Source: a phage
Direction: 5' to 3' (one strand)
Sequence record: OZ503099.1
DNA length: 48,179 nucleotides
This document shows positions 21,882-46,338 of this stretch, in pieces. Each line of letters starts with the position of its first letter. The stretch's first letter is position 1. Under the pieces are notes generated by a model, which made no database searches, had not been told where the DNA came from, and saw only the letters and a program-made list of their open reading frames with translations. A program made the position numbers and the translations under genes.

Positions 21882-22376
21882 TCATACTCTTGCTTCTTGC
21901 GTTTGGCTTTCCCCATGCTGACCTCTTACGTTGCGAAGAAGTGAATTGAACAGGTTGCTCACATTAACTTCCTGCTCATGCCATGAGTAACTCCACAGCT
22001 TCTTGTGGTGGTCATAGCTTCGCGTCACGTCTCCGTTATGAAACATAATGCGGATGCGGTTTTTCACGATTCGATAATCAATGCTAGTGTCTGCGCTAAT
22101 TTCTTTCACCTCTGCGCCAGCGTTATCAATCAAATGGCACTTAATGGCATCATCAATACCTGCCGCATCATCAGAGATGAAATATTTATACTGCCACTTA
22201 CCGCCACGAATCACTGACTTCTCACGGCGAATAAAGCCAAGTGCCAGCATCTCATGCAAACGATGCGTAGTTGTGCTTGAATGTTTACCACCGCAATGCT
22301 TTTCAATGTATGCGCGCGTTGCTCCCGGATGATTGACAATCACGCGCATTATTTGCGATTCATAGTCCATAATCAC
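21882..22376 (-). CDS. Hypothetical protein with N-terminal winged-helix-like region
   Basis: 164 aa; N-terminal 70 aa resemble a winged-helix DNA-binding fold. Confidence 0.35.
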   Translation of the reverse strand: MIMDYESQIMRVIVNHPGATRAYIEKHCGGKHSSTTTHRLHEMLALGFIRREKSVIRGGKWQYKYFISDDAAGIDDAIKCHLIDNAGAEVKEISADTSIDYRIVKNRIRIMFHNGDVTRSYDHHKKLWSYSWHEQEVNVSNLFNSLLRNVRGQHGESQTQEARV

Positions 22377-22614
22377 GCCCCTCTGCTACCTGATTGAAGT
22401 CTTCTGCGGTGTACAGGTTCCCACCTCTTGTGTTCCATTGCGTAGCTGCTGTCAGTTTTGTTACGTGAACATCACTTGAGCATCCGCACTCACACATGGC
22501 GAAATACATTCCATCATCGTTATATAACTTAACTTCGCTGCTGCCACAGAATGGGCACTCAAGCAGCATTTCATCATTCATTGTTGGCATATGTGGTGCG
22601 CTCATTTCACCCAC
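22360..22614 (-). CDS. Lar-family-like zinc-ribbon protein (possible restriction alleviation)
   Basis: LLECPFCGSSEVKLY...YFAMCECGCSS: CPFCG then CxCGC spacing as in Lar-family proteins. Confidence 0.5.
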   Translation of the reverse strand: MGEMSAPHMPTMNDEMLLECPFCGSSEVKLYNDDGMYFAMCECGCSSDVHVTKLTAATQWNTRGGNLYTAEDFNQVAEGRDYGL

Positions 22615-31386: not shown

Positions 31387-32811
31387 TTATCGCCTGCGAC
31401 GGATTAGCATTCCACTGCCACGCTGAACGATGTGGTCATTGAGTGCATAACGAACCGCGTCCCAGTAGTGGTTATATGCATCAACAATATCAGTCAGCAC
31501 ATTCCCTGTCAGCTTATCAACTTTGTAGCTGTACATTGCCGCCTCATTCTGCATCTCCTTGCATCGTTCGTGAATGACAATGCTGTCGCAGCCGCGTAAC
31601 CATGTCACGCCATCCTCGACACTGCCGGGCCATTTTGTGCATGGATGAATGTCAAAGCCAGAGCGCTTGATGTGGCTGATAGTTTCTGGTCGCGCGCAGT
31701 CGGCATACCATCGTGCGCGCTTAGCCATCGGGAATGATTGCTCCATCGCAGCTGGCGTGTCGGTAATCTCAAGCCCCACCTTTCCGTACTCGCGATTAAT
31801 ATAAATATTGCGTCGCCCGCCGGGTAACTCTTCGATGTAAACCTCAACCATTGCGGTTGGATCGGTGGAAAACCCAAAGTCCATCCCGAAGTATGGTCCA
31901 TGCCATTCAGGCTTGACCTCGAAGTTATCAATGAGCCATTTTCCGCCAAATACCTGTTCGTCGCTACGCTTGTTGAATTTTCCTTCATACACCCAAAGGT
32001 AGCGATCATAATCCACTGCCTTCATCTGGTTCATGTGCTGTTTAAGTTCTTCCGTGAACCACGGGTTGTGAACGTAGTTAACATTAACAACAACGATGTC
32101 ATCATCCTGATATATGCCATCTACCATCTTGTCGATGTAAGGCTCAACAAAGTTAGTCCATGTCGGGTCCGTCTCTTTGTTCGGGTTAAAAACAATAATA
32201 ATTTCAGAACCAGCGGCGCGCACCGTTGGAATTAACGTATCCCATGACACCTGACTGATGTTTTCGGATTCTTCACAGAACACGTCTGTAAGGCCAGCCA
32301 TGCCTTTGATTGCGGTTATGTTTCGCCAAAGGCCACGAAAAACAAACTTTGATCTCGTTGTGTGGTGTGTTATCTCGCCATCCACGCAACGATATTCCTG
32401 AGTGTGCCCCTTCCTGTTTATCTCATCAACCAGTTCGGCATAGCTTGATTCTTTGATTGAGTTCTGTATCTCACGGAAGCATCCGACGCGGCTGTTGCGG
32501 AATCTTGCCTTTTCTATAAGGTAAGAAACAACGTTAGCCGTCTTTCCGCTGCCCCTACCCCCATAGAACACCTTGAAACGGCGAGGATAAAGCAGCAGCT
32601 CCATTCGCTCAGGTATTAATATTGTTGGCTTCTCGTCTGTTTCTGACACGCCAGTGGCTGTCATTTTAAGGCACTTAACCACATTCGGTGTACCGTCAGG
32701 CAATAGCTTATCGACAATACCGAAAACAGAAGACTCTGGTTTTGCAGTTGAATTGCCTACTGCTTGCTCAAGTTTTTCTATCGCAACGCTTGAGAGTCTT
32801 TTACGCGCCAT
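31387..32811 (-). CDS. Terminase large subunit
   Basis: Walker A YGGRGSGKT near the N-terminus, conserved acidic nuclease-type residues in the C-terminal half, 474 aa. Confidence 0.8.
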   Translation of the reverse strand: MARKRLSSVAIEKLEQAVGNSTAKPESSVFGIVDKLLPDGTPNVVKCLKMTATGVSETDEKPTILIPERMELLLYPRRFKVFYGGRGSGKTANVVSYLIEKARFRNSRVGCFREIQNSIKESSYAELVDEINRKGHTQEYRCVDGEITHHTTRSKFVFRGLWRNITAIKGMAGLTDVFCEESENISQVSWDTLIPTVRAAGSEIIIVFNPNKETDPTWTNFVEPYIDKMVDGIYQDDDIVVVNVNYVHNPWFTEELKQHMNQMKAVDYDRYLWVYEGKFNKRSDEQVFGGKWLIDNFEVKPEWHGPYFGMDFGFSTDPTAMVEVYIEELPGGRRNIYINREYGKVGLEITDTPAAMEQSFPMAKRARWYADCARPETISHIKRSGFDIHPCTKWPGSVEDGVTWLRGCDSIVIHERCKEMQNEAAMYSYKVDKLTGNVLTDIVDAYNHYWDAVRYALNDHIVQRGSGMLIRRRR

Positions 32812-33319
32812 GATTGCAAAATTCTCCCTGATGTTTCTCCCTGAACTGTCTTATTGCACGATCAGCATCATCAATTGATGAAAACCTACCTATTTTGTGA
32901 TACTTGCCAAATAACCAGCATTGGGCTATCCACTTTCCCCTTTGATTATCCCAGCTAACTCCCTTGATTCCAGATGTGTTGTTTTTTTGCATCCTCTTGT
33001 TCCACTGATTCTGTGATGTTGTGGCCAGTCTTAAATTTTTAATCCTGTTATCGTTGCGAATGCCATTAATGTGGTCAACTTGTTCTTCAGGCCAAGCTCC
33101 ATAGACGTAAAGCCATGCCAGCCTATGAGCAAGATAGATTCTTCCACTTATTCCTATTTCCACATACCCCTTCTTAGGTTTTATCCTGCCAGCAATGCTT
33201 CCAGAATTTATTCTTCTGCTTGGCTTACTTAACCACGTGAAAACACCAGTGTCTGGATTGTAATGCAGGAGGTGTTTAAGTCTCTCTTGAGTGATGGGCA
33301 ACTCTTTTAATGATGGCAT
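32801..33319 (-). CDS. HNH homing endonuclease with AP2-type domain
   Basis: DHINGIRNDNRIKNLRLATTSQNQWN plus SGIKGVSWDNQRGKWIAQ; paralogue of 4710-5201 and 40538-41128; sits between putative small and large terminase genes. Confidence 0.75.
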   Translation of the reverse strand: MPSLKELPITQERLKHLLHYNPDTGVFTWLSKPSRRINSGSIAGRIKPKKGYVEIGISGRIYLAHRLAWLYVYGAWPEEQVDHINGIRNDNRIKNLRLATTSQNQWNKRMQKNNTSGIKGVSWDNQRGKWIAQCWLFGKYHKIGRFSSIDDADRAIRQFREKHQGEFCNHGA

Positions 33320-33422
33320 GATTGAATCCTCGGTTACAGGCGGTCTATTGGTTGGATGCGGCAGCCCGGAGACCAATCCGGGCAGGGAGCTACCCTTTGC
33401 CGCATTAATTATTATAAATCAG

Positions 33423-33866: not shown

Positions 33867-33984
33867 TCTGTTTTCGTCTTTTCGTATTTCGATATGGTTA
33901 GTTTAACACAGATAAAAAAGAACCCGCACAAGGCGGGTTAAAGGTTGGGTGATGATATGAGTGAAAGCAATGGTGGTTATGCGA

Positions 33985-34224
33985 TTATTGTACACCATCA
34001 TTATCACGCTTGCCAGCATAACACCATGCATTTTCATTTCTCGTCTGCACATGAACGATTTCAAGCGCATCAGGGAATGTTTTAGCAACCTTCGCGATAA
34101 AATCATCCAGTTCGTATTGTTTTGCGAGTTGCCAGACTTTCGCTTTAGTGGTTTGCATTAGCAAAAGCCCTCGTTGAGCACATGTACTTAATGTCATGCA
34201 CGCCGTTATCTGGCACAACCTCAA
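33985..34224 (-). CDS. Hypothetical protein
   Basis: 79-aa ORF. Confidence 0.4.
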   Translation of the reverse strand: MRLCQITACMTLSTCAQRGLLLMQTTKAKVWQLAKQYELDDFIAKVAKTFPDALEIVHVQTRNENAWCYAGKRDNDGVQ

Positions 34225-34316
34225 TGTAATTGCCGATTTGTACCATCATGTAGTGACATGTCTTCATACTGTCCCAGTAGCGTTCCCACATGTTTTGCAT
34301 CGCGTCGCTAATGTCA

Positions 34317-34655
34317 TTAAACATAATGCCTCCACTCCCTTTTAACCCACGCTATGCGATTCTTGTTGGTGTGAATTGTTCCGTTAACACATTCCACATA
34401 GTATGAGTTCTCTGCGTTATTAAACGGGTAATCACGGTTGAGTCCGGCCTTAATGAATTGCGATTTCATTAACTGCAACGCCATATCCCTTACCGGGAAT
34501 CTGCAACCTTTACTTGTAAGGTGCGAGCATAAAGAACCACAAAGCCCGCTGCGACGACTGAATGGTTCACTTTCTGGTGCTCCGGCATCAATCCAGTCGG
34601 AATATGCTTCATAAAACTCAGCTAATTGATTAAACATAATACACAACTCCTGCAA
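34317..34655 (-). CDS. Hypothetical protein
   Basis: 112-aa ORF. Confidence 0.4.
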   Translation of the reverse strand: MQELCIMFNQLAEFYEAYSDWIDAGAPESEPFSRRSGLCGSLCSHLTSKGCRFPVRDMALQLMKSQFIKAGLNRDYPFNNAENSYYVECVNGTIHTNKNRIAWVKREWRHYV

Positions 34656-34806
34656 TGGCTGCTACCAGCGATAGCACATAAACAGCAAGGAATATTTTAG
34701 CGCCAGTGGTGTATCGGCGTCGTTGGTGTCTGGTCATAAAAAACTCCTGTTAGCTATGTTTAAGAAGCCATAATGCAAACTTCTGCCTAATGGAAATCTC
34801 TTTTCT

Positions 34807-35070
34807 CTAACCCGCAGTGCTTTCAACTGACGAGGGGAACAAAATCTTTTCTTCAAATCCGGCATTCATATCATGGACAGCAACACACCAATCCATTGAC
34901 GAGCGATTATCGAGAGCCTCCATGATTTCATCCATGCGGCGCAGGTCATACAGGTAAATGCTTTTATCGCCAATGGTGTAAAAACCAATTTTTTTTGGTG
35001 ATGGACAGCGATCAAGAACGTCCTGTAATTCATTCAACCATGCCCGTTCTTTTTTTGTCAAAGTTGCCAT
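34807..35070 (-). CDS. Hypothetical protein
   Basis: 87-aa ORF. Confidence 0.4.
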   Translation of the reverse strand: MATLTKKERAWLNELQDVLDRCPSPKKIGFYTIGDKSIYLYDLRRMDEIMEALDNRSSMDWCVAVHDMNAGFEEKILFPSSVESTAG

Positions 35071-35071
35071 A

Positions 35072-35485
35072 TCACTCTCCTTTGCGAAGCTGTGCGGCGA
35101 AATATTCAGCTCTTTTTACGCATTCTTCATAAGCAGCTGCATCAGCAATATCCTCATCAATGAGAGTAAAATCTCGCTCACCTCTACACCACTGTGCAAA
35201 CATCTCAACCCCCTGTGCACGAATTTCAGCCAGGAAAGCGTCGGTGGCTGGGGTTTCAGTGAGGTTGTCCTCCCAACCGTAGTACTCCTGACGACAGAAG
35301 TTATTAAATTCCTTCTCCGACTGTTTAAGCGCCGCATTCTCCGCTGCCAGCTCCGCGCATTTAGTTTCGAGTGCTGCATAGTCCTTGTATTTAACGAACT
35401 GCCCGAGCCTCAGCTCTTCTCCATGCTTAAAATTAAGAATCTCTTTTTCGCCCATAACCAATGTGTATATCTTCACTTCACTCAT
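35072..35485 (-). CDS. Hypothetical protein
   Basis: 137-aa ORF. Confidence 0.4.
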   Translation of the reverse strand: MSEVKIYTLVMGEKEILNFKHGEELRLGQFVKYKDYAALETKCAELAAENAALKQSEKEFNNFCRQEYYGWEDNLTETPATDAFLAEIRAQGVEMFAQWCRGERDFTLIDEDIADAAAYEECVKRAEYFAAQLRKGE

Positions 35486-35727
35486 ACCATAACCCCCATT
35501 ATTTCTTCGTAATAGCCATCTTCTTCAAACTCAATCTTTGCGATTTTGAGCGCATCATCATCTGTGATGTCAATCGCTTTGAATTTGCACTTTGCCAGCA
35601 CGATGCAGCCAGAAAGAATTAGCCACTTATTCCACCAGTGGACTCTCTTGATTGTCCTGCTTGCATACATTTTGTTCTGCACTATCCAGAACTCGTATGT
35701 TTTCACTTTTTCCATATCAATCACCAT
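35482..35727 (-). CDS. Hypothetical protein
   Basis: 81-aa ORF; overlap with neighbours. Confidence 0.4.
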   Translation of the reverse strand: MVIDMEKVKTYEFWIVQNKMYASRTIKRVHWWNKWLILSGCIVLAKCKFKAIDITDDDALKIAKIEFEEDGYYEEIMGVMV

Positions 35728-35920
35728 CTACTCTGCGATTCCAGTCGACGACTGCCTGTTCTGCAGACTCCCTGAAGTTTGTCATTCTCGCCCCGCATGA
35801 GCATCGAATGAGAAAGTATGGTCTTTCATGGTCAGATGAACGCCATAGCTTAACTTTTGGTTCACCACCGCAAAACGGACAACTCTTGATAATCAACTCA
35901 CTCATATAATCACCATTCAA
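35717..35920 (-). CDS. Lar-family-like zinc-ribbon protein (possible restriction alleviation)
   Basis: IIKSCPFCGGEPKVK...YFLIRCSCGARMTNF: CPFCGG and CSCG motifs as in Lar-family proteins. Confidence 0.5.
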   Translation of the reverse strand: MNGDYMSELIIKSCPFCGGEPKVKLWRSSDHERPYFLIRCSCGARMTNFRESAEQAVVDWNRRVDGD

Positions 35921-35940: not shown

Positions 35941-36123
35941 TCAGAATACGATAATCAGCTCATCCATTACTCTGCGCTTACCTTCACCATTAAACACGCG
36001 CACAACGCGATTTACGCGGATAGATTCCATTGCATTGCGTGCCTGTTTGCTCATAAAGTTCTGCGCGCCAACGTGACCGAGTTCCGGCTCCAGTTTCTCA
36101 CGACGATAGATAGTCTTTGCCAT
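35941..36123 (-). CDS. Hypothetical basic small protein
   Basis: 60-aa ORF. Confidence 0.4.
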   Translation of the reverse strand: MAKTIYRREKLEPELGHVGAQNFMSKQARNAMESIRVNRVVRVFNGEGKRRVMDELIIVF

Positions 36124-36218
36124 TTGTTACTCCTTATACCCTGATTTAGAAACTGCCACCGCGATGATAATGAATGCCACGACAACCAGACTGGCGATAA
36201 GTTCGAATGATGCACCTG

Positions 36219-36404
36219 TCATTTCTTAGAAGCCTTATATTCATCTTCAGTCATCGCATATGCCTCGCAAATCATGTTCGCTGCATCAATGATTGCATTT
36301 GAACGCATGTCAGCAGGAAGACTTGCAACCTGTTGTGATAATGCCATGCATATATCGCTGAACAACTTCATCTGGTCGATGTCGTACGTGCTTTCCTCTT
36401 TCAT
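36219..36404 (-). CDS. Hypothetical acidic small protein
   Basis: 61-aa ORF; first gene downstream of minus-strand promoter. Confidence 0.4.
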   Translation of the reverse strand: MKEESTYDIDQMKLFSDICMALSQQVASLPADMRSNAIIDAANMICEAYAMTEDEYKASKK

Positions 36405-36434
36405 CTCTTCACCCCCGTTTGTTACGATGAGTTC

Positions 36435-36463
36435 AATCTACATCAATGATGATTCTACGTCAA
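36435..36463 (-). promoter_or_regulatory. Minus-strand promoter for the long leftward transcription unit
   Basis: On the minus strand TTGACG (36458-36463), 17 bp, TAGATT (36435-36440); two copies of the recurrent 13-bp motif. Confidence 0.45.
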
Positions 36464-36539
36464 TATAATAGCTAAAATAAACATCTATGTTAGTTGTCAC
36501 TCACGGTTATTAATTTTGTAACTCATTGATTTTTAATAG

Positions 36540-36890
36540 GTGCATTTATCCGTTTTATCCCGCTGATTTTTTCATTTATCCCAAAGATTTCGTTATAAAT
36601 CATAACATTGCGTCGTTTTATCTCATTTAACCTTATCCTGAATCTAATAGAGAGAAATATAATTTTTGAAATGGATTTTTGGTGAGTGAAAAAGATGGTA
36701 AGAAAAACGGGGTAAATGGGATAAATAATAGTATATATCAATAATAATATTAATAAATACATATACTTATCAACAAAATTACTTATCCCAAACTTTCCCC
36801 GTTCTTATCCCGATTTATACCGAATTGCATTTAGCGGATAAGTGATTTGCTAATGTTGCGGCTTGGTTGACATGGAGAATGGATAAGAAT
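36540..36890. promoter_or_regulatory. AT-rich region with clustered TTATCC (DnaA-box core-like) repeats; candidate replication origin
   Basis: TTATCC at 36546, 36555, 36576, 36633, 36783, 36805 (plus) and GGATAA at 36719, 36836, 36881 (minus); very AT-rich block 36721-36780. Confidence 0.4.
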
Positions 36891-36895
36891 AAGAT
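36867..36895 (+). promoter_or_regulatory. Promoter of the P1-P4 operon
   Basis: TTGACA (36867-36872), 17 bp, TAAGAT (36890-36895); GGAGG RBS 5 nt before ATG 36925. Confidence 0.5.
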
Positions 36896-36924
36896 ACTTT
36901 ATGTATAAGTGCGCGGAGGTTTTA

Positions 36925-37146
36925 ATGAAGGTAACAATGGCAACTCAATTTGATCTGGATAATGCAAGGAAGAGAACAAAGTGGCCTTTTAGCAGGATGA
37001 AGCCTGGAGACATTGTGTGCATATCAGAAAGTGAATTCAGCAATACAAAGGTTCAGAGAAAAGCCCATGCTTATGGGCATGCAACAGGAAAATCATTCAC
37101 ATGCAAATCAAGTGATGGGAAAGTAATCATCAAAAGGATCTCATAA
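36925..37146 (+). CDS. Hypothetical small protein P1 (73 aa)
   Basis: Strong RBS; stop overlaps P2 start (TAATG). Confidence 0.5.
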   Translation: MKVTMATQFDLDNARKRTKWPFSRMKPGDIVCISESEFSNTKVQRKAHAYGHATGKSFTCKSSDGKVIIKRIS

Positions 37147-38633
37147 TGTCGATAAAAACCATTTATGACCTGACTTCTGACATAAACAAAGACAGATGGT
37201 ACGACATCACAAAACCACCTGGACTTGCTGGTGAAATTGCTGATGATATTGCCGCTGGTGAGGTTCGTGAACAGCCAAGACTTAGAGCTGTTGCTGCTCT
37301 TCATGAACTGATTATTGCCAGCAAAGGCAAGATTAAAACACCAAGCGGTATGAAGGGAAATCTCCTCACTATCTGTATCGCAGATTCAGCAGGAGGAAAG
37401 GATAGATCACAAAGCCATTTCAAAATCATGGCGAGAGATATCGAAAAGGGTATGCATGTCTTTGGTCGGATTGCATCATCAAAAGATATCGGTCGGTCAC
37501 TGATAAACCATGATGGAGTTGCGACATTTATTATTGATGAATGTCATGGATTGTTTGGTGTAATGACGCAGAAGAATGGCGCAGCTTACATGGCTGAACT
37601 TGGTTCTGAAATTCTGTCTGTTTATTCCGACAGGCTGAAGAAGTTTTCAGACCTTGATGCTGTTAACGCCAAAGAGCAGCTTGAGAAGGAACTCAAGAAG
37701 CTGAAAGCTGAAGTTAAGGATAAAGGGATTGTAGAGTCAGAATACCGCAGACGCGAGCAGCAGCTTGAGCGTGAAATATTGTGGCCAATTCAGCAGGGTA
37801 TCGAAGACCCGATATTCTCGATGATGTGCTTTTCAACACCAGAGAAGCTGTCCAGTATTATTTGTTCAGAAAATATCGGAACAGGCTTGATTGGTCGAGC
37901 AATCTTCATTAAAGGGAAAGACGGTCGCGCAAGGAAATTACGCAAATATGGCCATAAAACACCACAGTCTCTAATAGATAAAATGAAGGCAGTGGAAAAA
38001 TCATCACCACAGGTTGCAAGATACGAAAACGATGTTGTGCAGGCGCTGGCTGAATCACTTGATGACAGATTTGAGGAACTGGTAAATGATGTTTCTCTTG
38101 GCGCAGTAATTGCCCGTTCATTCGAGCAGGTTGAAAAAGTTGCGACTGCACTTTCTGCTGGGAATAAAGGTGTAATTACAGAAGAAATGCTGATGTGGTC
38201 ATTCTGTTTTGTTTGTGAAAGCCTGACAGACGTTATGAGCATGCTAAAAGTGAACGAGAGCCAGGAAGAACTCGGAACAATGGCCAGATGGAATGAGATT
38301 AAAAATAGAATTGAGAATATCCTTTCTGGAAGAACGAAGGATGACAGGATGCCTCAGTCTATTCTCGTTCAGAGGGCTGTTAAAACAAAATCCCTTAAGG
38401 CTCTCGCTGATGCAATAGCAAGATCTAATGGGGAAGATTTTTCCTATGGAGCAAAAACTCTTGTTACTCCAGTAATACAATCCCTCATGGCATCTCGTGC
38501 AATTGATGCTGTAGGTTGCGGTTACTGGATTAACGACGCAAGTAAATTTGAAGGCACGAAAATGAGCGTTAAATTCACGCAAATTGTTGATGGGATTGGC
38601 ATGAATATGGCTGCAATGAGGGGTTGGCGATGA
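37146..38633 (+). CDS. Hypothetical protein P2 (495 aa) with degenerate nucleotide-binding-like motifs
   Basis: CIADSAGGKD and FIIDECHGLF segments about 45 aa apart; rare-codon (AGA/AGG/ATA) rich; no family I can assign. Confidence 0.55.
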   Translation: MSIKTIYDLTSDINKDRWYDITKPPGLAGEIADDIAAGEVREQPRLRAVAALHELIIASKGKIKTPSGMKGNLLTICIADSAGGKDRSQSHFKIMARDIEKGMHVFGRIASSKDIGRSLINHDGVATFIIDECHGLFGVMTQKNGAAYMAELGSEILSVYSDRLKKFSDLDAVNAKEQLEKELKKLKAEVKDKGIVESEYRRREQQLEREILWPIQQGIEDPIFSMMCFSTPEKLSSIICSENIGTGLIGRAIFIKGKDGRARKLRKYGHKTPQSLIDKMKAVEKSSPQVARYENDVVQALAESLDDRFEELVNDVSLGAVIARSFEQVEKVATALSAGNKGVITEEMLMWSFCFVCESLTDVMSMLKVNESQEELGTMARWNEIKNRIENILSGRTKDDRMPQSILVQRAVKTKSLKALADAIARSNGEDFSYGAKTLVTPVIQSLMASRAIDAVGCGYWINDASKFEGTKMSVKFTQIVDGIGMNMAAMRGWR

Positions 38634-39404: not shown

Positions 39405-39434
39405 AAAACCCTCCAGTCGGAGGGTTTATTTTAT
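39405..39434. terminator. Rho-independent terminator (bidirectional)
   Basis: AACCCTCC-AGTC-GGAGGGTT hairpin followed by TATTTTAT. Confidence 0.6.
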
Positions 39435-40384
39435 CTGCTTACTGACATTTTCTCTATCAACTCGCCAGCGTCATAAATCTTTCTTCTGATTCTCTTCGCC
39501 ATCCTGATTGTGTCAGCATCATCAGGCAGCATCACCGGTAGTCCTGCGTTTTCCGCAGCGCAAAGTTCGTCAAATTTATAATTAACTATGCAGCGTAACC
39601 GTGCTTTCGTCTCATCACTAACAGAACGCACCACTTCCCACATGTTTTCCGGCGACCAGCAACACCAGACATGAGCGCCAGTGAAGTAATGGCACTTCCA
39701 CGCATCGGCATAATCAGACACCAGGTAAATGAACTTTCCGTTGTCTTCTCCGATTGGGCTTATCGCGCCGCGCGTGAGTTTGCCGTTGATGGCTGAGTCC
39801 TTGTTGTATCCTGCGCGGAAAAACGTTTTGAATGAATCACCATCCATGCCAATGAATGCCACGTTGCACGGCTTCATTGTGTCAGCTCGCATCATCTCAA
39901 CCGCAATAAGCTCTCCAGATTTACCTCTGGCAACATTAACGTCGCAACCAATACCATTTATCAACGTCCACTCATTCATCGCTACACGCGTCGTTTTAGC
40001 CATGATTGCGGCGACTTCCTGTTCGGTGATGAAGTCATCGTTGTAATTTATCTTCGGCATCTCCTTCCTGATTGCCTCCAGCTTTTCGCATGGGTGCATG
40101 TTCAGGAATCCTCCCAGCGCCTCCAGTGCTTCAGGAAAGCTCATGCCTGAAAGTTTCATCAGCCAGTTCATGCCGCTGCCGGAGCCGCACTGATTGCAGA
40201 TTGCACCGCCATCGCCTTTTGTTTCTAAGTTGTCATCAAAGCGATATCTGTCTGTTCCACCACAACTTGGACATGGCTGGTGCTTACCATTGAAAACTCT
40301 GCTATCCACATTGACGATAGACATGATGGCAGCCTGCCAGTTATTTCTCATTAGAGGCTCGATTTCCTTCCAGTCGTACTTCAT
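39431..40384 (-). CDS. DNA primase-like protein (zinc-ribbon plus putative TOPRIM)
   Basis: CPSCGGTDRYRFDD...CNQCGSG zinc-binding motif near N-terminus; downstream acidic E and MDGD elements; adjacent to helicase operon. Confidence 0.5.
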   Translation of the reverse strand: MKYDWKEIEPLMRNNWQAAIMSIVNVDSRVFNGKHQPCPSCGGTDRYRFDDNLETKGDGGAICNQCGSGSGMNWLMKLSGMSFPEALEALGGFLNMHPCEKLEAIRKEMPKINYNDDFITEQEVAAIMAKTTRVAMNEWTLINGIGCDVNVARGKSGELIAVEMMRADTMKPCNVAFIGMDGDSFKTFFRAGYNKDSAINGKLTRGAISPIGEDNGKFIYLVSDYADAWKCHYFTGAHVWCCWSPENMWEVVRSVSDETKARLRCIVNYKFDELCAAENAGLPVMLPDDADTIRMAKRIRRKIYDAGELIEKMSVSR

Positions 40385-40396
40385 AAAATCTTCCTG

Positions 40397-40479
40397 TTGA
40401 CGATGATGTAGATTCATTGTAATTTACTCACATGAAACGCGCAAGCGTTCTTGACATGAAACGCAACTGAGTTTAACAT
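40397..40479 (+). promoter_or_regulatory. Tandem promoters of the helicase/recombination operon with CATGAAACGC direct repeat
   Basis: TTGACG (40397-40402), 17 bp, TAATTT (40420-40425); TTGACA (40451-40456), 17 bp, TAACAT (40474-40479); repeat at 40431-40440 and 40455-40464. Confidence 0.4.
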
Positions 40480-40537
40480 CGAGGATAAGAAATGGCTATC
40501 ACTCTGAAAAAGTGCAAAAATTGTGGGGGAGAATTCT

Positions 40538-41128
40538 ATGGAACATCAAGAGCTGAGTTTTGTTGTTCAGGATGCAGACTCAAAAGTTTCCGAGAAAAAA
40601 AGAAGGGTGCTAAAAATTGATGTTGATTACGTGACATCAAGGTTAGAGGTTGTCAATGGACGCCTGTATTGGAAAAGGAGAGATGAATTAACGCCATACC
40701 ACAAAACATGGAATGCACGGTATCCGGGGAAACCTGCTGACAATAAGCTTGACAAAATGAATTACAGGCTTGTGATGATTGATGGTGTTTATTATAAAGC
40801 ACATAGAATTGTATGGGCTATATGCAAACAGCAAGACCCTGGAGCTATGGACATTGATCACATCAATACAATTAAGAACGATAACAGGATAGAAAATCTC
40901 AGGTTGGCTGATTGCAGTCAAAACAAATGGAATAAAGGCTTATCATCAAATAACACTAGCGGATACAAAGGTGTTAGTTGGTTCAAAAGGGAGAAACGGT
41001 GGGTTGCTCAGATTTGGGTTAGAGGTAAAAAGAAAGTTATTGGTTATTTTAATACCCCTGAAGATGCACATAAAGCGTATGCAAAAGCATCATCAAGTCT
41101 TCATGGTGAATTTGGTAGGGTAAAATAA
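40538..41128 (+). CDS. HNH homing endonuclease with AP2-type domain
   Basis: DHINTIKNDNRIENLRLADCSQNKWN plus SGYKGVSWFKREKRWVAQIW; stop overlaps helicase start (TAATG). Confidence 0.7.
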   Translation: MEHQELSFVVQDADSKVSEKKRRVLKIDVDYVTSRLEVVNGRLYWKRRDELTPYHKTWNARYPGKPADNKLDKMNYRLVMIDGVYYKAHRIVWAICKQQDPGAMDIDHINTIKNDNRIENLRLADCSQNKWNKGLSSNNTSGYKGVSWFKREKRWVAQIWVRGKKKVIGYFNTPEDAHKAYAKASSSLHGEFGRVK

Positions 41129-45718: not shown

Positions 45719-46219
45719 ATGGCACGCGGCGTAAATAAAGTAATTATTGTCGGCACTTTAGGTAATGACCCTGAAGTAAAATATTCAGCATCAGGTTCTG
45801 CTATTGCCAACCTTTCCGTTGCAACATCTGAGCAGTGGAAAGACAAGCAAACAGGAGAAAAGAAGGAGCAGACTGAATGGCATCGTGTTGTCATATTCGG
45901 GAAACTTGCGGAAGTTGCAGGAGAATACCTTCGCAAAGGTTCGCAGGTTTATATCGAAGGCCAGCTGCGCACTCGTAAGTGGACTGACAGCAACGGCGTG
46001 GACAAATACACCACTGAGATTGTCATTCCGCAGATGGGTGGCGTTATGCAGATGCTTGGAGGTAAACGCGAAGATTCTGGTCAGCAACCACGCCAGAAAT
46101 CAGGCCAACAACCTCAACAACTTCAACAACCGCAACGACAACAGCAGCAACCAAAACAACAAATCCCACAAGGAGGTAATGAGCCTCCGATGGACTTCGA
46201 TGACGATATTCCGTTTTGA
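45719..46219 (+). CDS. ssb: Single-stranded DNA-binding protein
   Basis: [17 protein letters not shown]...[41 protein letters not shown] and acidic tail [11 protein letters not shown] are near-identical to E. coli SSB as I recall it. Confidence 0.9.
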
Positions 46220-46239
46220 ATATAAAGAGGGAGTGTGAT

Positions 46240-46338
46240 ATGTGTAAATTAAAATGCAATTGTGGCGGCGCTGTTGATGTGCATGTAAGCGCGAACAAAT
46301 TTTATGCGCAATGTGAAAGATGCCACTATGGATGGTAG
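46240..46338 (+). CDS. Possible small zinc-ribbon protein (32 aa)
   Basis: MCKLKCNCGG...QCERCHYGW; GAGGGA RBS; not in the ORF track (below size cutoff). Confidence 0.3.
   Translation: MCKLKCNCGGAVDVHVSANKFYAQCERCHYGW

Follow-up and report, generated by a model that had tools for sequence, protein, structure and literature searches.

A second, rare Lar-family zinc-ribbon gene in the genome of a Skatevirus-group siphophage

Described relatives of the protein

The Ral protein of phage lambda alleviates type I restriction by enhancing modification. Its function goes back to Loenen & Murray 1986, as cited in PMC12904381. The Lar protein of the Rac prophage in E. coli K-12 (RalR, b1348, 64 aa) is like Ral in its proposed function, with no sequence relationship between them, and the two have been described as unrelated (PMC4041452). 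Rac Lar is the founding member of the family captured by Pfam PF14354 and NCBIfam TIGR03655. According to King & Murray 1995, as cited in PMC4041452 and PMC11482910, it alleviates EcoKI restriction, which is where the family takes its name. Guo et al. 2014 reported that RalR is a non-specific DNase toxin that is neutralised by the small RNA RalA; the protein cut both methylated and unmethylated DNA in vitro, was toxic, was inactivated by the substitution K52G and did not inhibit restriction-modification (PMC4041452). Rac Lar is the sole family member for which restriction alleviation has been shown, and the reports on it conflict. What Lar-family proteins do remains debated because the only member that has been studied is described on the one hand as an anti-restriction protein and on the other as a DNase toxin.

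We focused on a Lar-family gene in a stretch of phage DNA of 48,179 nucleotides (record OZ503099.1), which we refer to as the window. The window is a roughly 48-kb siphophage genome with 46% GC from the Skatevirus group of Salmonella, E. coli and Shigella phages, examples of which are VSt472, KFS-SE2, Seszw, DS8 and swi2. Its best genome matches cover 60-66% of the sequence at about 88-90% identity. The gene under study is referred to as copy 2, and a second relative elsewhere in the window as copy 1.

Copy 2 was compared with the E. coli K-12 ralR (formerly lar) sequence taken from NC_000913. The two proteins are alike in size and 32% identical over 57 residues (pairwise E 4e-8); for copy 1, the identity to RalR is 33%. 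Both RalR and copy 2 have CPFCG...C...C knuckles and a W-N-(K/R)-R helix, and both are encoded in phage-derived DNA among recombination or early-type genes. They differ in the second knuckle, which is C-x-C in copy 2 and C-x2-C in RalR, and in charge, copy 2 being near-neutral (+0.6) and RalR basic (+4.5). Copy 2 is found in a lytic siphophage, whereas RalR resides in a cryptic lambdoid prophage. RalR also has the RalA small RNA adjacent to it, whereas copy 2 has no adjacent RalA. Rfam gave no match in the window at the gathering score, a permissive Rfam scan gave only spurious matches, and E. coli ralA searched against the window gave chance-level matches with blastn and none with nhmmer. Elsewhere in the window there was no complementarity to copy 2 of at least 12 nt, only 11-mers resembling ribosome-binding sites. 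The RalR equivalog model NF007260 scored copy 2 at 19.5 bits, below its cut-off of 113 bits. By these comparisons, copy 2 is no orthologue of RalR, and there is no support for a RalR/RalA toxin-antitoxin arrangement.

Other described proteins are more distant. The zinc ribbon of Elf1, a eukaryotic and archaeal Pol II factor (PDB 9er2_O, 8rap_M, 1wii_A), resembles copy 2 in fold class only, and Pfam and PDB sequence searches gave no significant sequence or profile match between them. The Pfam scan of copy 2 at E<=10 contained no match to the Ral family, its only entries being Lar_restr_allev and a weak match to FdhE_central. Another candidate analogue, the methylation-altering phage protein Druad1 (44 aa), was rejected because it is unrelated and, according to its description, has no homologues.

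Coding sequence, family and fold

The minus-strand ORF at 35717..35920 encodes 67 aa from a TTG codon and reads MNGDYMSELIIKSCPFCGGEPKVKLW...CSCGARMTNF...WNRRVDGD. A preliminary description of the locus had reported a 67-aa protein with SCPFCGGEPKV...CSCGARMTNF, and this sequence was found at 35717-35920 as described. The TTG start did not hold up. An ATG at 35905-35903 opens a protein of 62 aa (MSELIIK...) and is preceded by GGTGA at 35914-35910 with a 4-nt spacer. The same ATGAGT (MSEL...) opens all five orthologous loci that were read, and the leader ATGGTGAT(G/T)ATATG is conserved across them. The in-frame TTG is absent from four of these five orthologues, as is its frame, and the annotation of the orthologue in relatives is a 189-nt CDS. 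The conserved ATG and leader, the missing TTG and the 189-nt annotated CDS lead us to place copy 2 at 35717-35905, with 62 aa. We thus rejected the TTG at 35920 in favour of the ATG at 35905, on the orthologue starts and the placement of GGTGA. The start is likely this ATG, giving 62 rather than 67 aa, and positions 35906..35920 are probably an untranslated leader. The stop codon TGA occupies 35719-35717 and the ATG of the next gene follows at 35715, with one base between them.

35717..35905, minus strand: coding sequence of the Lar-family zinc-ribbon protein, copy 2 (62 aa, MSELIIKSCPFCGGEPKVKLWRSSDHERPYFLIRCSCGARMTNFRESAEQAVVDWNRRVDGD), placed by profile matches and orthologues
35906..35920, minus strand: five-codon TTG extension, which holds the Shine-Dalgarno sequence GGTGA (35914-35910), from sequence and orthologue comparison

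Against PF14354 (Lar_restr_allev), copy 2 scored 40.8 bits (E 2.7e-10) over profile positions 3-57 of 58, where the gathering score is 28.6 bits. Against TIGR03655 (anti_R_Lar), it scored 42.6 bits over positions 1-54 of 55, where the curated cut-off is 39.6 bits. The match to PHROG 599, 'Lar-like restriction alleviation protein', had an E of 9.7e-11. The earlier suggestion that the protein is Lar-family-like was thus borne out, as a significant match to the Lar profile was found and copy 2 exceeds the curated cut-off in both Pfam and NCBIfam, two independent libraries. Copy 2 almost certainly belongs to the Lar family (PF14354/TIGR03655).

The zinc knuckles of copy 2 are C9-x2-C12 and C35-x-C37, and its C-terminal helix contains W55-N56-R57-R58. 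An alignment of 20 family sequences had ten invariant columns (C9, P10, F11, C12, G13, C35, C37, W55, N56 and R58), and all ten residues are present in copy 2, copy 1 and RalR. The AF2 single-sequence model of copy 2 (mean pLDDT 86.3) is a three-stranded ribbon (strands 17-21, 30-34 and 40-43) followed by a C-terminal helix (48-61) that carries W-N-x-R. Its best matches among the viral structures of BFVD are named restriction alleviation or Lar proteins, with TM 0.6-0.75 and probability 1.0; the Foldseek E of these matches is merely about 1e-2 because the domain is so small. A PDB sequence search returned no meaningful relative, and chemokine-like topological matches from Foldseek against the PDB were rejected as non-significant. 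In the model, copy 2 is a single predicted Cys4 zinc ribbon of three strands and one W-N-x-R helix, which presumably binds zinc.

To place copy 2 within its family, we used it as a single-sequence query in an exhaustive HMMER scan, which found 462 representative relatives at E<=1e-3 that share the CPFCG...C-x-C...WNxR pattern. A word-indexed protein search returned one homologue only; the family is seen through the HMMER scan. That homologue, P0001, is the closest outside the Skateviruses, with 70% identity to copy 2, and is encoded on a short metagenomic contig where a second Lar-domain gene directly follows it (locus L008 436-817). Among the best 150 of the 462 representatives, 80 have a single recognisable domain and 64 (about 43%) have two tandem Lar domains. 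WNxR occurs in nearly all of the 208 Lar domains examined, and its x is variable (R 88, K 22, T 18 and others). The second knuckle is usually C-x2-C in the surveyed domains, which makes the C-x-C of copy 2 a minority form. Ten longer relatives were searched for domain fusions and held repeated Lar domains only. The tandem proteins (64/150) and the Lar-domain neighbour of P0001 suggest that the domain often works in pairs.

Could copy 2 be a chance ORF or a decaying remnant? The ORF is short and is missing from most related phages, as such a reading would have it. However, its profile matches reach E values of about 1e-10, its fold is predicted with confidence (AF2), and it has a proper ribosome-binding site and is tightly coupled in translation to the gene that follows. 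The reading frame is intact in all six genomes compared, and pN/pS for the six orthologous coding sequences is 0.12-0.39. All six orthologues conserve the four cysteines and keep W-N-x-R, with Arg at x in five and Ser in LPST49. The profile matches, the AF2 model and pN/pS effectively refute a non-functional copy 2 already, leaving that reading scarcely credible. The comparisons show copy 2 to be a genuine gene on which purifying selection acts.

Gene order, distribution and the other Lar-family copy

Copy 2 is the fourth gene of a tightly packed run of about ten small minus-strand ORFs that starts at 36404. The run and its flanking signals are, in the direction of transcription:

36435..36463, minus strand: promoter-like site (TTGACG, 17 nt, TAGATT), a consensus match upstream of the first gene of the run
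36219-36404, minus strand: gene with no assigned function
36127-36222, minus strand: gene with no assigned function
35941-36123, minus strand: DUF7540 gene, 60 aa (PF24386, E 1.1e-32; PHROG 16924)
35482-35715, minus strand: gene with no assigned function, next after copy 2
35072-35485, minus strand: gene with no assigned function
34807-35070, minus strand: gene with no assigned function
34630-34737, minus strand: gene with no assigned function
34317-34637, minus strand: gene with no assigned function
34145-34324, minus strand: gene with no assigned function
33921..33939, minus strand: terminator-like hairpin (AACCCGC-CTTGT-GCGGGTT with a T-run), ahead of the HNH and terminase genes

The site at 36435..36463 is a candidate promoter of the unit that includes the Lar gene, in a window where the number of promoter-like sites does not exceed the shuffled expectation. 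The hairpin at 33939-33921 is a candidate for the end of the leftward small-gene unit. Upstream of the run, 500 bp of AT-rich intergenic DNA (GC 0.26-0.31) contain promoter-like hexamers that point both ways, and the primase and helicase genes lie rightward of this DNA. The locus had been assigned to an 'early leftward unit'. The packed leftward run is indeed seen, whereas its early timing is drawn from position; as a positional reading, the term is reasonable.

The divergent region at 36405-36900, between the leftward run and the rightward primase/helicase block, coincides with the local minimum of cumulative GC skew. The whole window has 19 TTATCC[CG] motifs (7.4 expected by chance), seven of which cluster at 36546-36841, in both orientations. 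Additional imperfect copies of the motif and several inverted repeats occur at 36405-36900, which looks like an iteron or DnaA-box-like origin and control region. On the minus strand at 36700-36809, a permissive Rfam scan gave weak, sub-threshold matches to miRNA precursors (MIR8742 at 23 bits, and MIR390), which are presumably due to a long AT-rich hairpin or inverted repeat and not to an RNA gene. Two genes on opposite strands match 'DNA primase' PHROGs, at 37146-38633 (plus) and 39431-40417 (minus), and are annotated alike in relatives; the latter contains a CPSCGG zinc-binding motif. At the other end of the run, a 67-aa ORF at 33903-34106 (minus) has no PHROG match and contains the hairpin 33939-33921 within its 3' end, and it may not be a real gene. 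An HNH endonuclease gene at 32801-33376 (minus; PHROG 99, E 6.5e-74) lies upstream of the large terminase gene at 31387-32811 and overlaps it, which is the usual packaging arrangement of such siphophages. The DUF7540 gene at 35941-36123 adjoins copy 2 upstream and is kept in genomes with or without the Lar cassette.

A scan of all stop-to-stop frames of the window with copy 2 as the query found only one other relative:

22360..22614, minus strand: Lar-family paralogue, copy 1 (PF14354, 36.4 bits; 84 aa from GTG)

This agrees with the earlier account, in which copy 2 was called the second Lar-family gene and the two paralogues were called divergent; in the pairwise comparison they are 28% identical (E 5e-7). 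The start position of copy 1 is uncertain, as an alternative ATG at 22605 would give 81 aa. Both copies belong to the same Pfam family and have the invariant residues in common. Copy 1 (CPFCGSS...CECGC...WNTR) is an acidic protein with a pI of 4.3 (7.7 in copy 2), carries WNTR in place of the WNRR of copy 2 and ends in a 20-residue C-terminal tail; its AF2 model has low confidence (pLDDT 62.5). Judging from their divergence, the two copies are old paralogues or independent acquisitions, and not the products of a recent duplication. Copy 1 overlaps the start of a gene for a MarR-family winged-helix regulator (21882-22376; PHROG 1687, E 4.5e-55). Annotations of Klebsiella and Salmonella siphophages repeatedly show a 'Lar-like / MarR family regulator' pair, suggestive of a conserved module of two genes. 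Two further plus-strand ORFs, at 40489-40620 and 46204-46338, have cysteine patterns of the CxxC...CxxC type (CKNCGG...CCSGC and CDMCKLKCNCGG...CERC); neither reached a Pfam threshold, and they were rejected as Lar-like.

The two copies differ in how widely they are distributed. With tblastn, copy 1 was found in 202 phage records, Klebsiella siphophages included. Copy 2 was found in 11, ten of them at 87-98% identity and one a distant match at 40%. By this distribution, copy 1 is a core gene and copy 2 a rare accessory. An IMG/VR search with copy 2 returned the same three isolate genomes and three relatives at 35-41%. A scan of representative bacterial genomes gave no close relative, and the exact protein was not found in the contig index. 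The orthologues in VSt472 (gp76, YP_010053759.1), KFSST1 (CDS0072, XYM60787.1) and IME207 (gp88, YP_009322801.1) have 62 aa, are 87-98% identical to copy 2 and occupy the same position in the small-gene run; the VSt472 protein differs by few substitutions, such as V52I and D62A. The genes downstream of the orthologue vary among phages. RefSeq names the VSt472 and IME207 orthologues 'Lar-like restriction alleviation protein', and the KFSST1 genome table lists both Lar-like genes, as ORF36 and ORF72 (PMC12965234). In view of the RefSeq annotation and the KFSST1 table, the finding is already on record at the annotation level: existing annotation records the gene, places it in its family and shows two Lar-like genes per genome.

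The edges of copy 2 are marked by a repeat of 14-15 nt, two copies of which bracket exactly one gene:

35903..35916, minus strand: upstream boundary repeat ATGGTGATTATATG, formed by the Lar gene's ribosome-binding site and start codon
35713..35727, minus strand: downstream boundary repeat ATGGTGATTGATATG, which spans the end of the Lar reading frame (its last codons and stop) together with the ribosome-binding site and start of the gene that follows

In Seszw_1, which has no copy 2, the DUF7540 gene directly adjoins the downstream gene of 77/78 aa. The alignment blocks between this genome and the window that flank copy 2 overlap by 14 nt in Seszw_1, which holds a single, hybrid copy of the boundary repeat. 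The paired repeats in the window and the single hybrid repeat in Seszw_1 indicate that exactly one gene, copy 2, was inserted or deleted between short repeats. Such an indel would fit the patchy distribution of the gene.

Possible function and its alternatives

Copy 2 is probably a small, stoichiometric binder rather than an enzyme, because it has 62 aa and no recognisable catalytic fold. It would be made soon after infection, if the timing suggested by its position is correct. By homology with Rac Lar, its most likely target would be the type I restriction-modification complex of the host, and its binding would alleviate the restriction of incoming unmodified phage DNA, enhance the modification of that DNA, or both. 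We put forward this anti-restriction mechanism, with type I restriction-modification as the leading candidate target, as a quite possible but tentative explanation. The accessory distribution of copy 2 and its presence or absence as one gene at a repeat of the ribosome-binding site are as expected of a host-interaction gene. The window contains four EcoKI and three StySB-type sites, close to the chance expectation. These near-chance counts indicate that type I sites are not avoided and that the genome would be a substrate; as functional context for copy 2, the site counts are weak. Anti-restriction by copy 2 has evidence against it in that the sole characterised homologue is just 32% identical and is reported to be a DNase toxin.

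Studies of other phages bear on the family as a whole, and the indirect evidence for alleviation of type I restriction is mixed. In phage Bas63, whether a Lar homologue is essential depends on the host (PhageMaP preprint), and the authors of that work speculate that it may counter type IV systems. The Skatevirus isolates Bas77-81 are reported to be markedly sensitive to restriction-modification systems (PMC11990801). Bas80 carries copy 1 at 91% identity, and there is no Bas phage among the records with copy 2. As Bas80 has copy 1 and Bas77-81 are sensitive, copy 1 confers no broad resistance to restriction-modification. The sensitivity of Skateviruses with copy 1 also means that membership of the Lar family does not guarantee anti-restriction. 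The earlier account had raised the possibility that the two divergent copies could target different restriction systems; this is a hypothesis on which our results weigh neither way.

The main alternative to a type I target is that copy 2 is a Lar-fold adaptor for another host factor, such as another defence that targets nucleic acids (type IV restriction, BREX or Druantia) or a protein of host replication or transcription, in which case the family name would be misleading for this subgroup. The Lar family is large and diverse (462 representatives) with just one member studied, the PhageMaP authors suggest a type IV role for a Lar homologue, and Skateviruses with copy 1 are still sensitive to restriction-modification. 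The copy 2 cassette, moreover, comes and goes among near-identical phages, as is typical of varied host-range and counter-defence genes, and it sits among neighbours that all have no assigned function. However, positive evidence for any specific alternative target is absent, domain fusions were uninformative (repeated Lar domains only), and a PADLOC search of defence systems gave no match. Action on another host target is possible but rather doubtful. It is unlikely that copy 2 is instead a RalR-like DNA-damaging protein whose zinc ribbon binds DNA and which is itself a non-specific endonuclease or recruits one; such a protein would help a lytic phage to degrade or nick host DNA, or would be a toxin. 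RalR, the sole biochemically studied member, did cleave DNA, was toxic and was inactivated by K52G (PMC4041452), and in copy 2 the residue aligned with K52 is likewise basic (R57), at a position where the family consensus reads WNRR. This position is nevertheless variable in the family (R, K, T, N, A, H and others); the LPST49 orthologue has Ser there and copy 1 has Thr. Neither a nuclease fold nor a catalytic motif is recognisable in the 62 residues of copy 2, whose charge is +0.6 against +4.5 for RalR and whose equivalog score is 19.5 against a cut-off of 113 bits, and the window contains no RalA-like RNA and no complementarity to copy 2 of at least 12 nt.

A heteromer of copies 1 and 2 that mimics two-domain Lar proteins, instead of two proteins acting on separate targets, would make sense of the two tandem domains in 64 of the best 150 family representatives and of the second Lar-domain gene that adjoins the gene of P0001 (70% identity). 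It is very unlikely, however. About 190 of the 202 records with copy 1 have no copy 2, which means that copy 1 works without it, and 13 kb separates the two genes, which belong to different blocks. In the tandem proteins, neither the N- nor the C-terminal domain is preferentially similar to one of the two copies, in a set that is biased, copy 2 being its query. We likewise consider it improbable that copy 2 is a mobile counter-defence cassette, bounded by repeats of the ribosome-binding site, with a target other than classical type I systems, or that it forms a split two-domain Lar protein with copy 1. If either were true (a target outside type I, or joint action with copy 1), the label 'restriction alleviation' would be misleading.

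Copy 2 is an ordinary annotated accessory gene. Our analysis corrected its start codon and showed that it is a rare single-gene cassette under purifying selection. Phages that are naturally near-isogenic and have or lack copy 2 (such as VSt472 and Seszw_1) would provide a ready-made test of how Lar proteins act. For Skateviruses that serve in phage therapy or as feed additives, it would be useful to know whether copy 2 widens the host range across restriction barriers.
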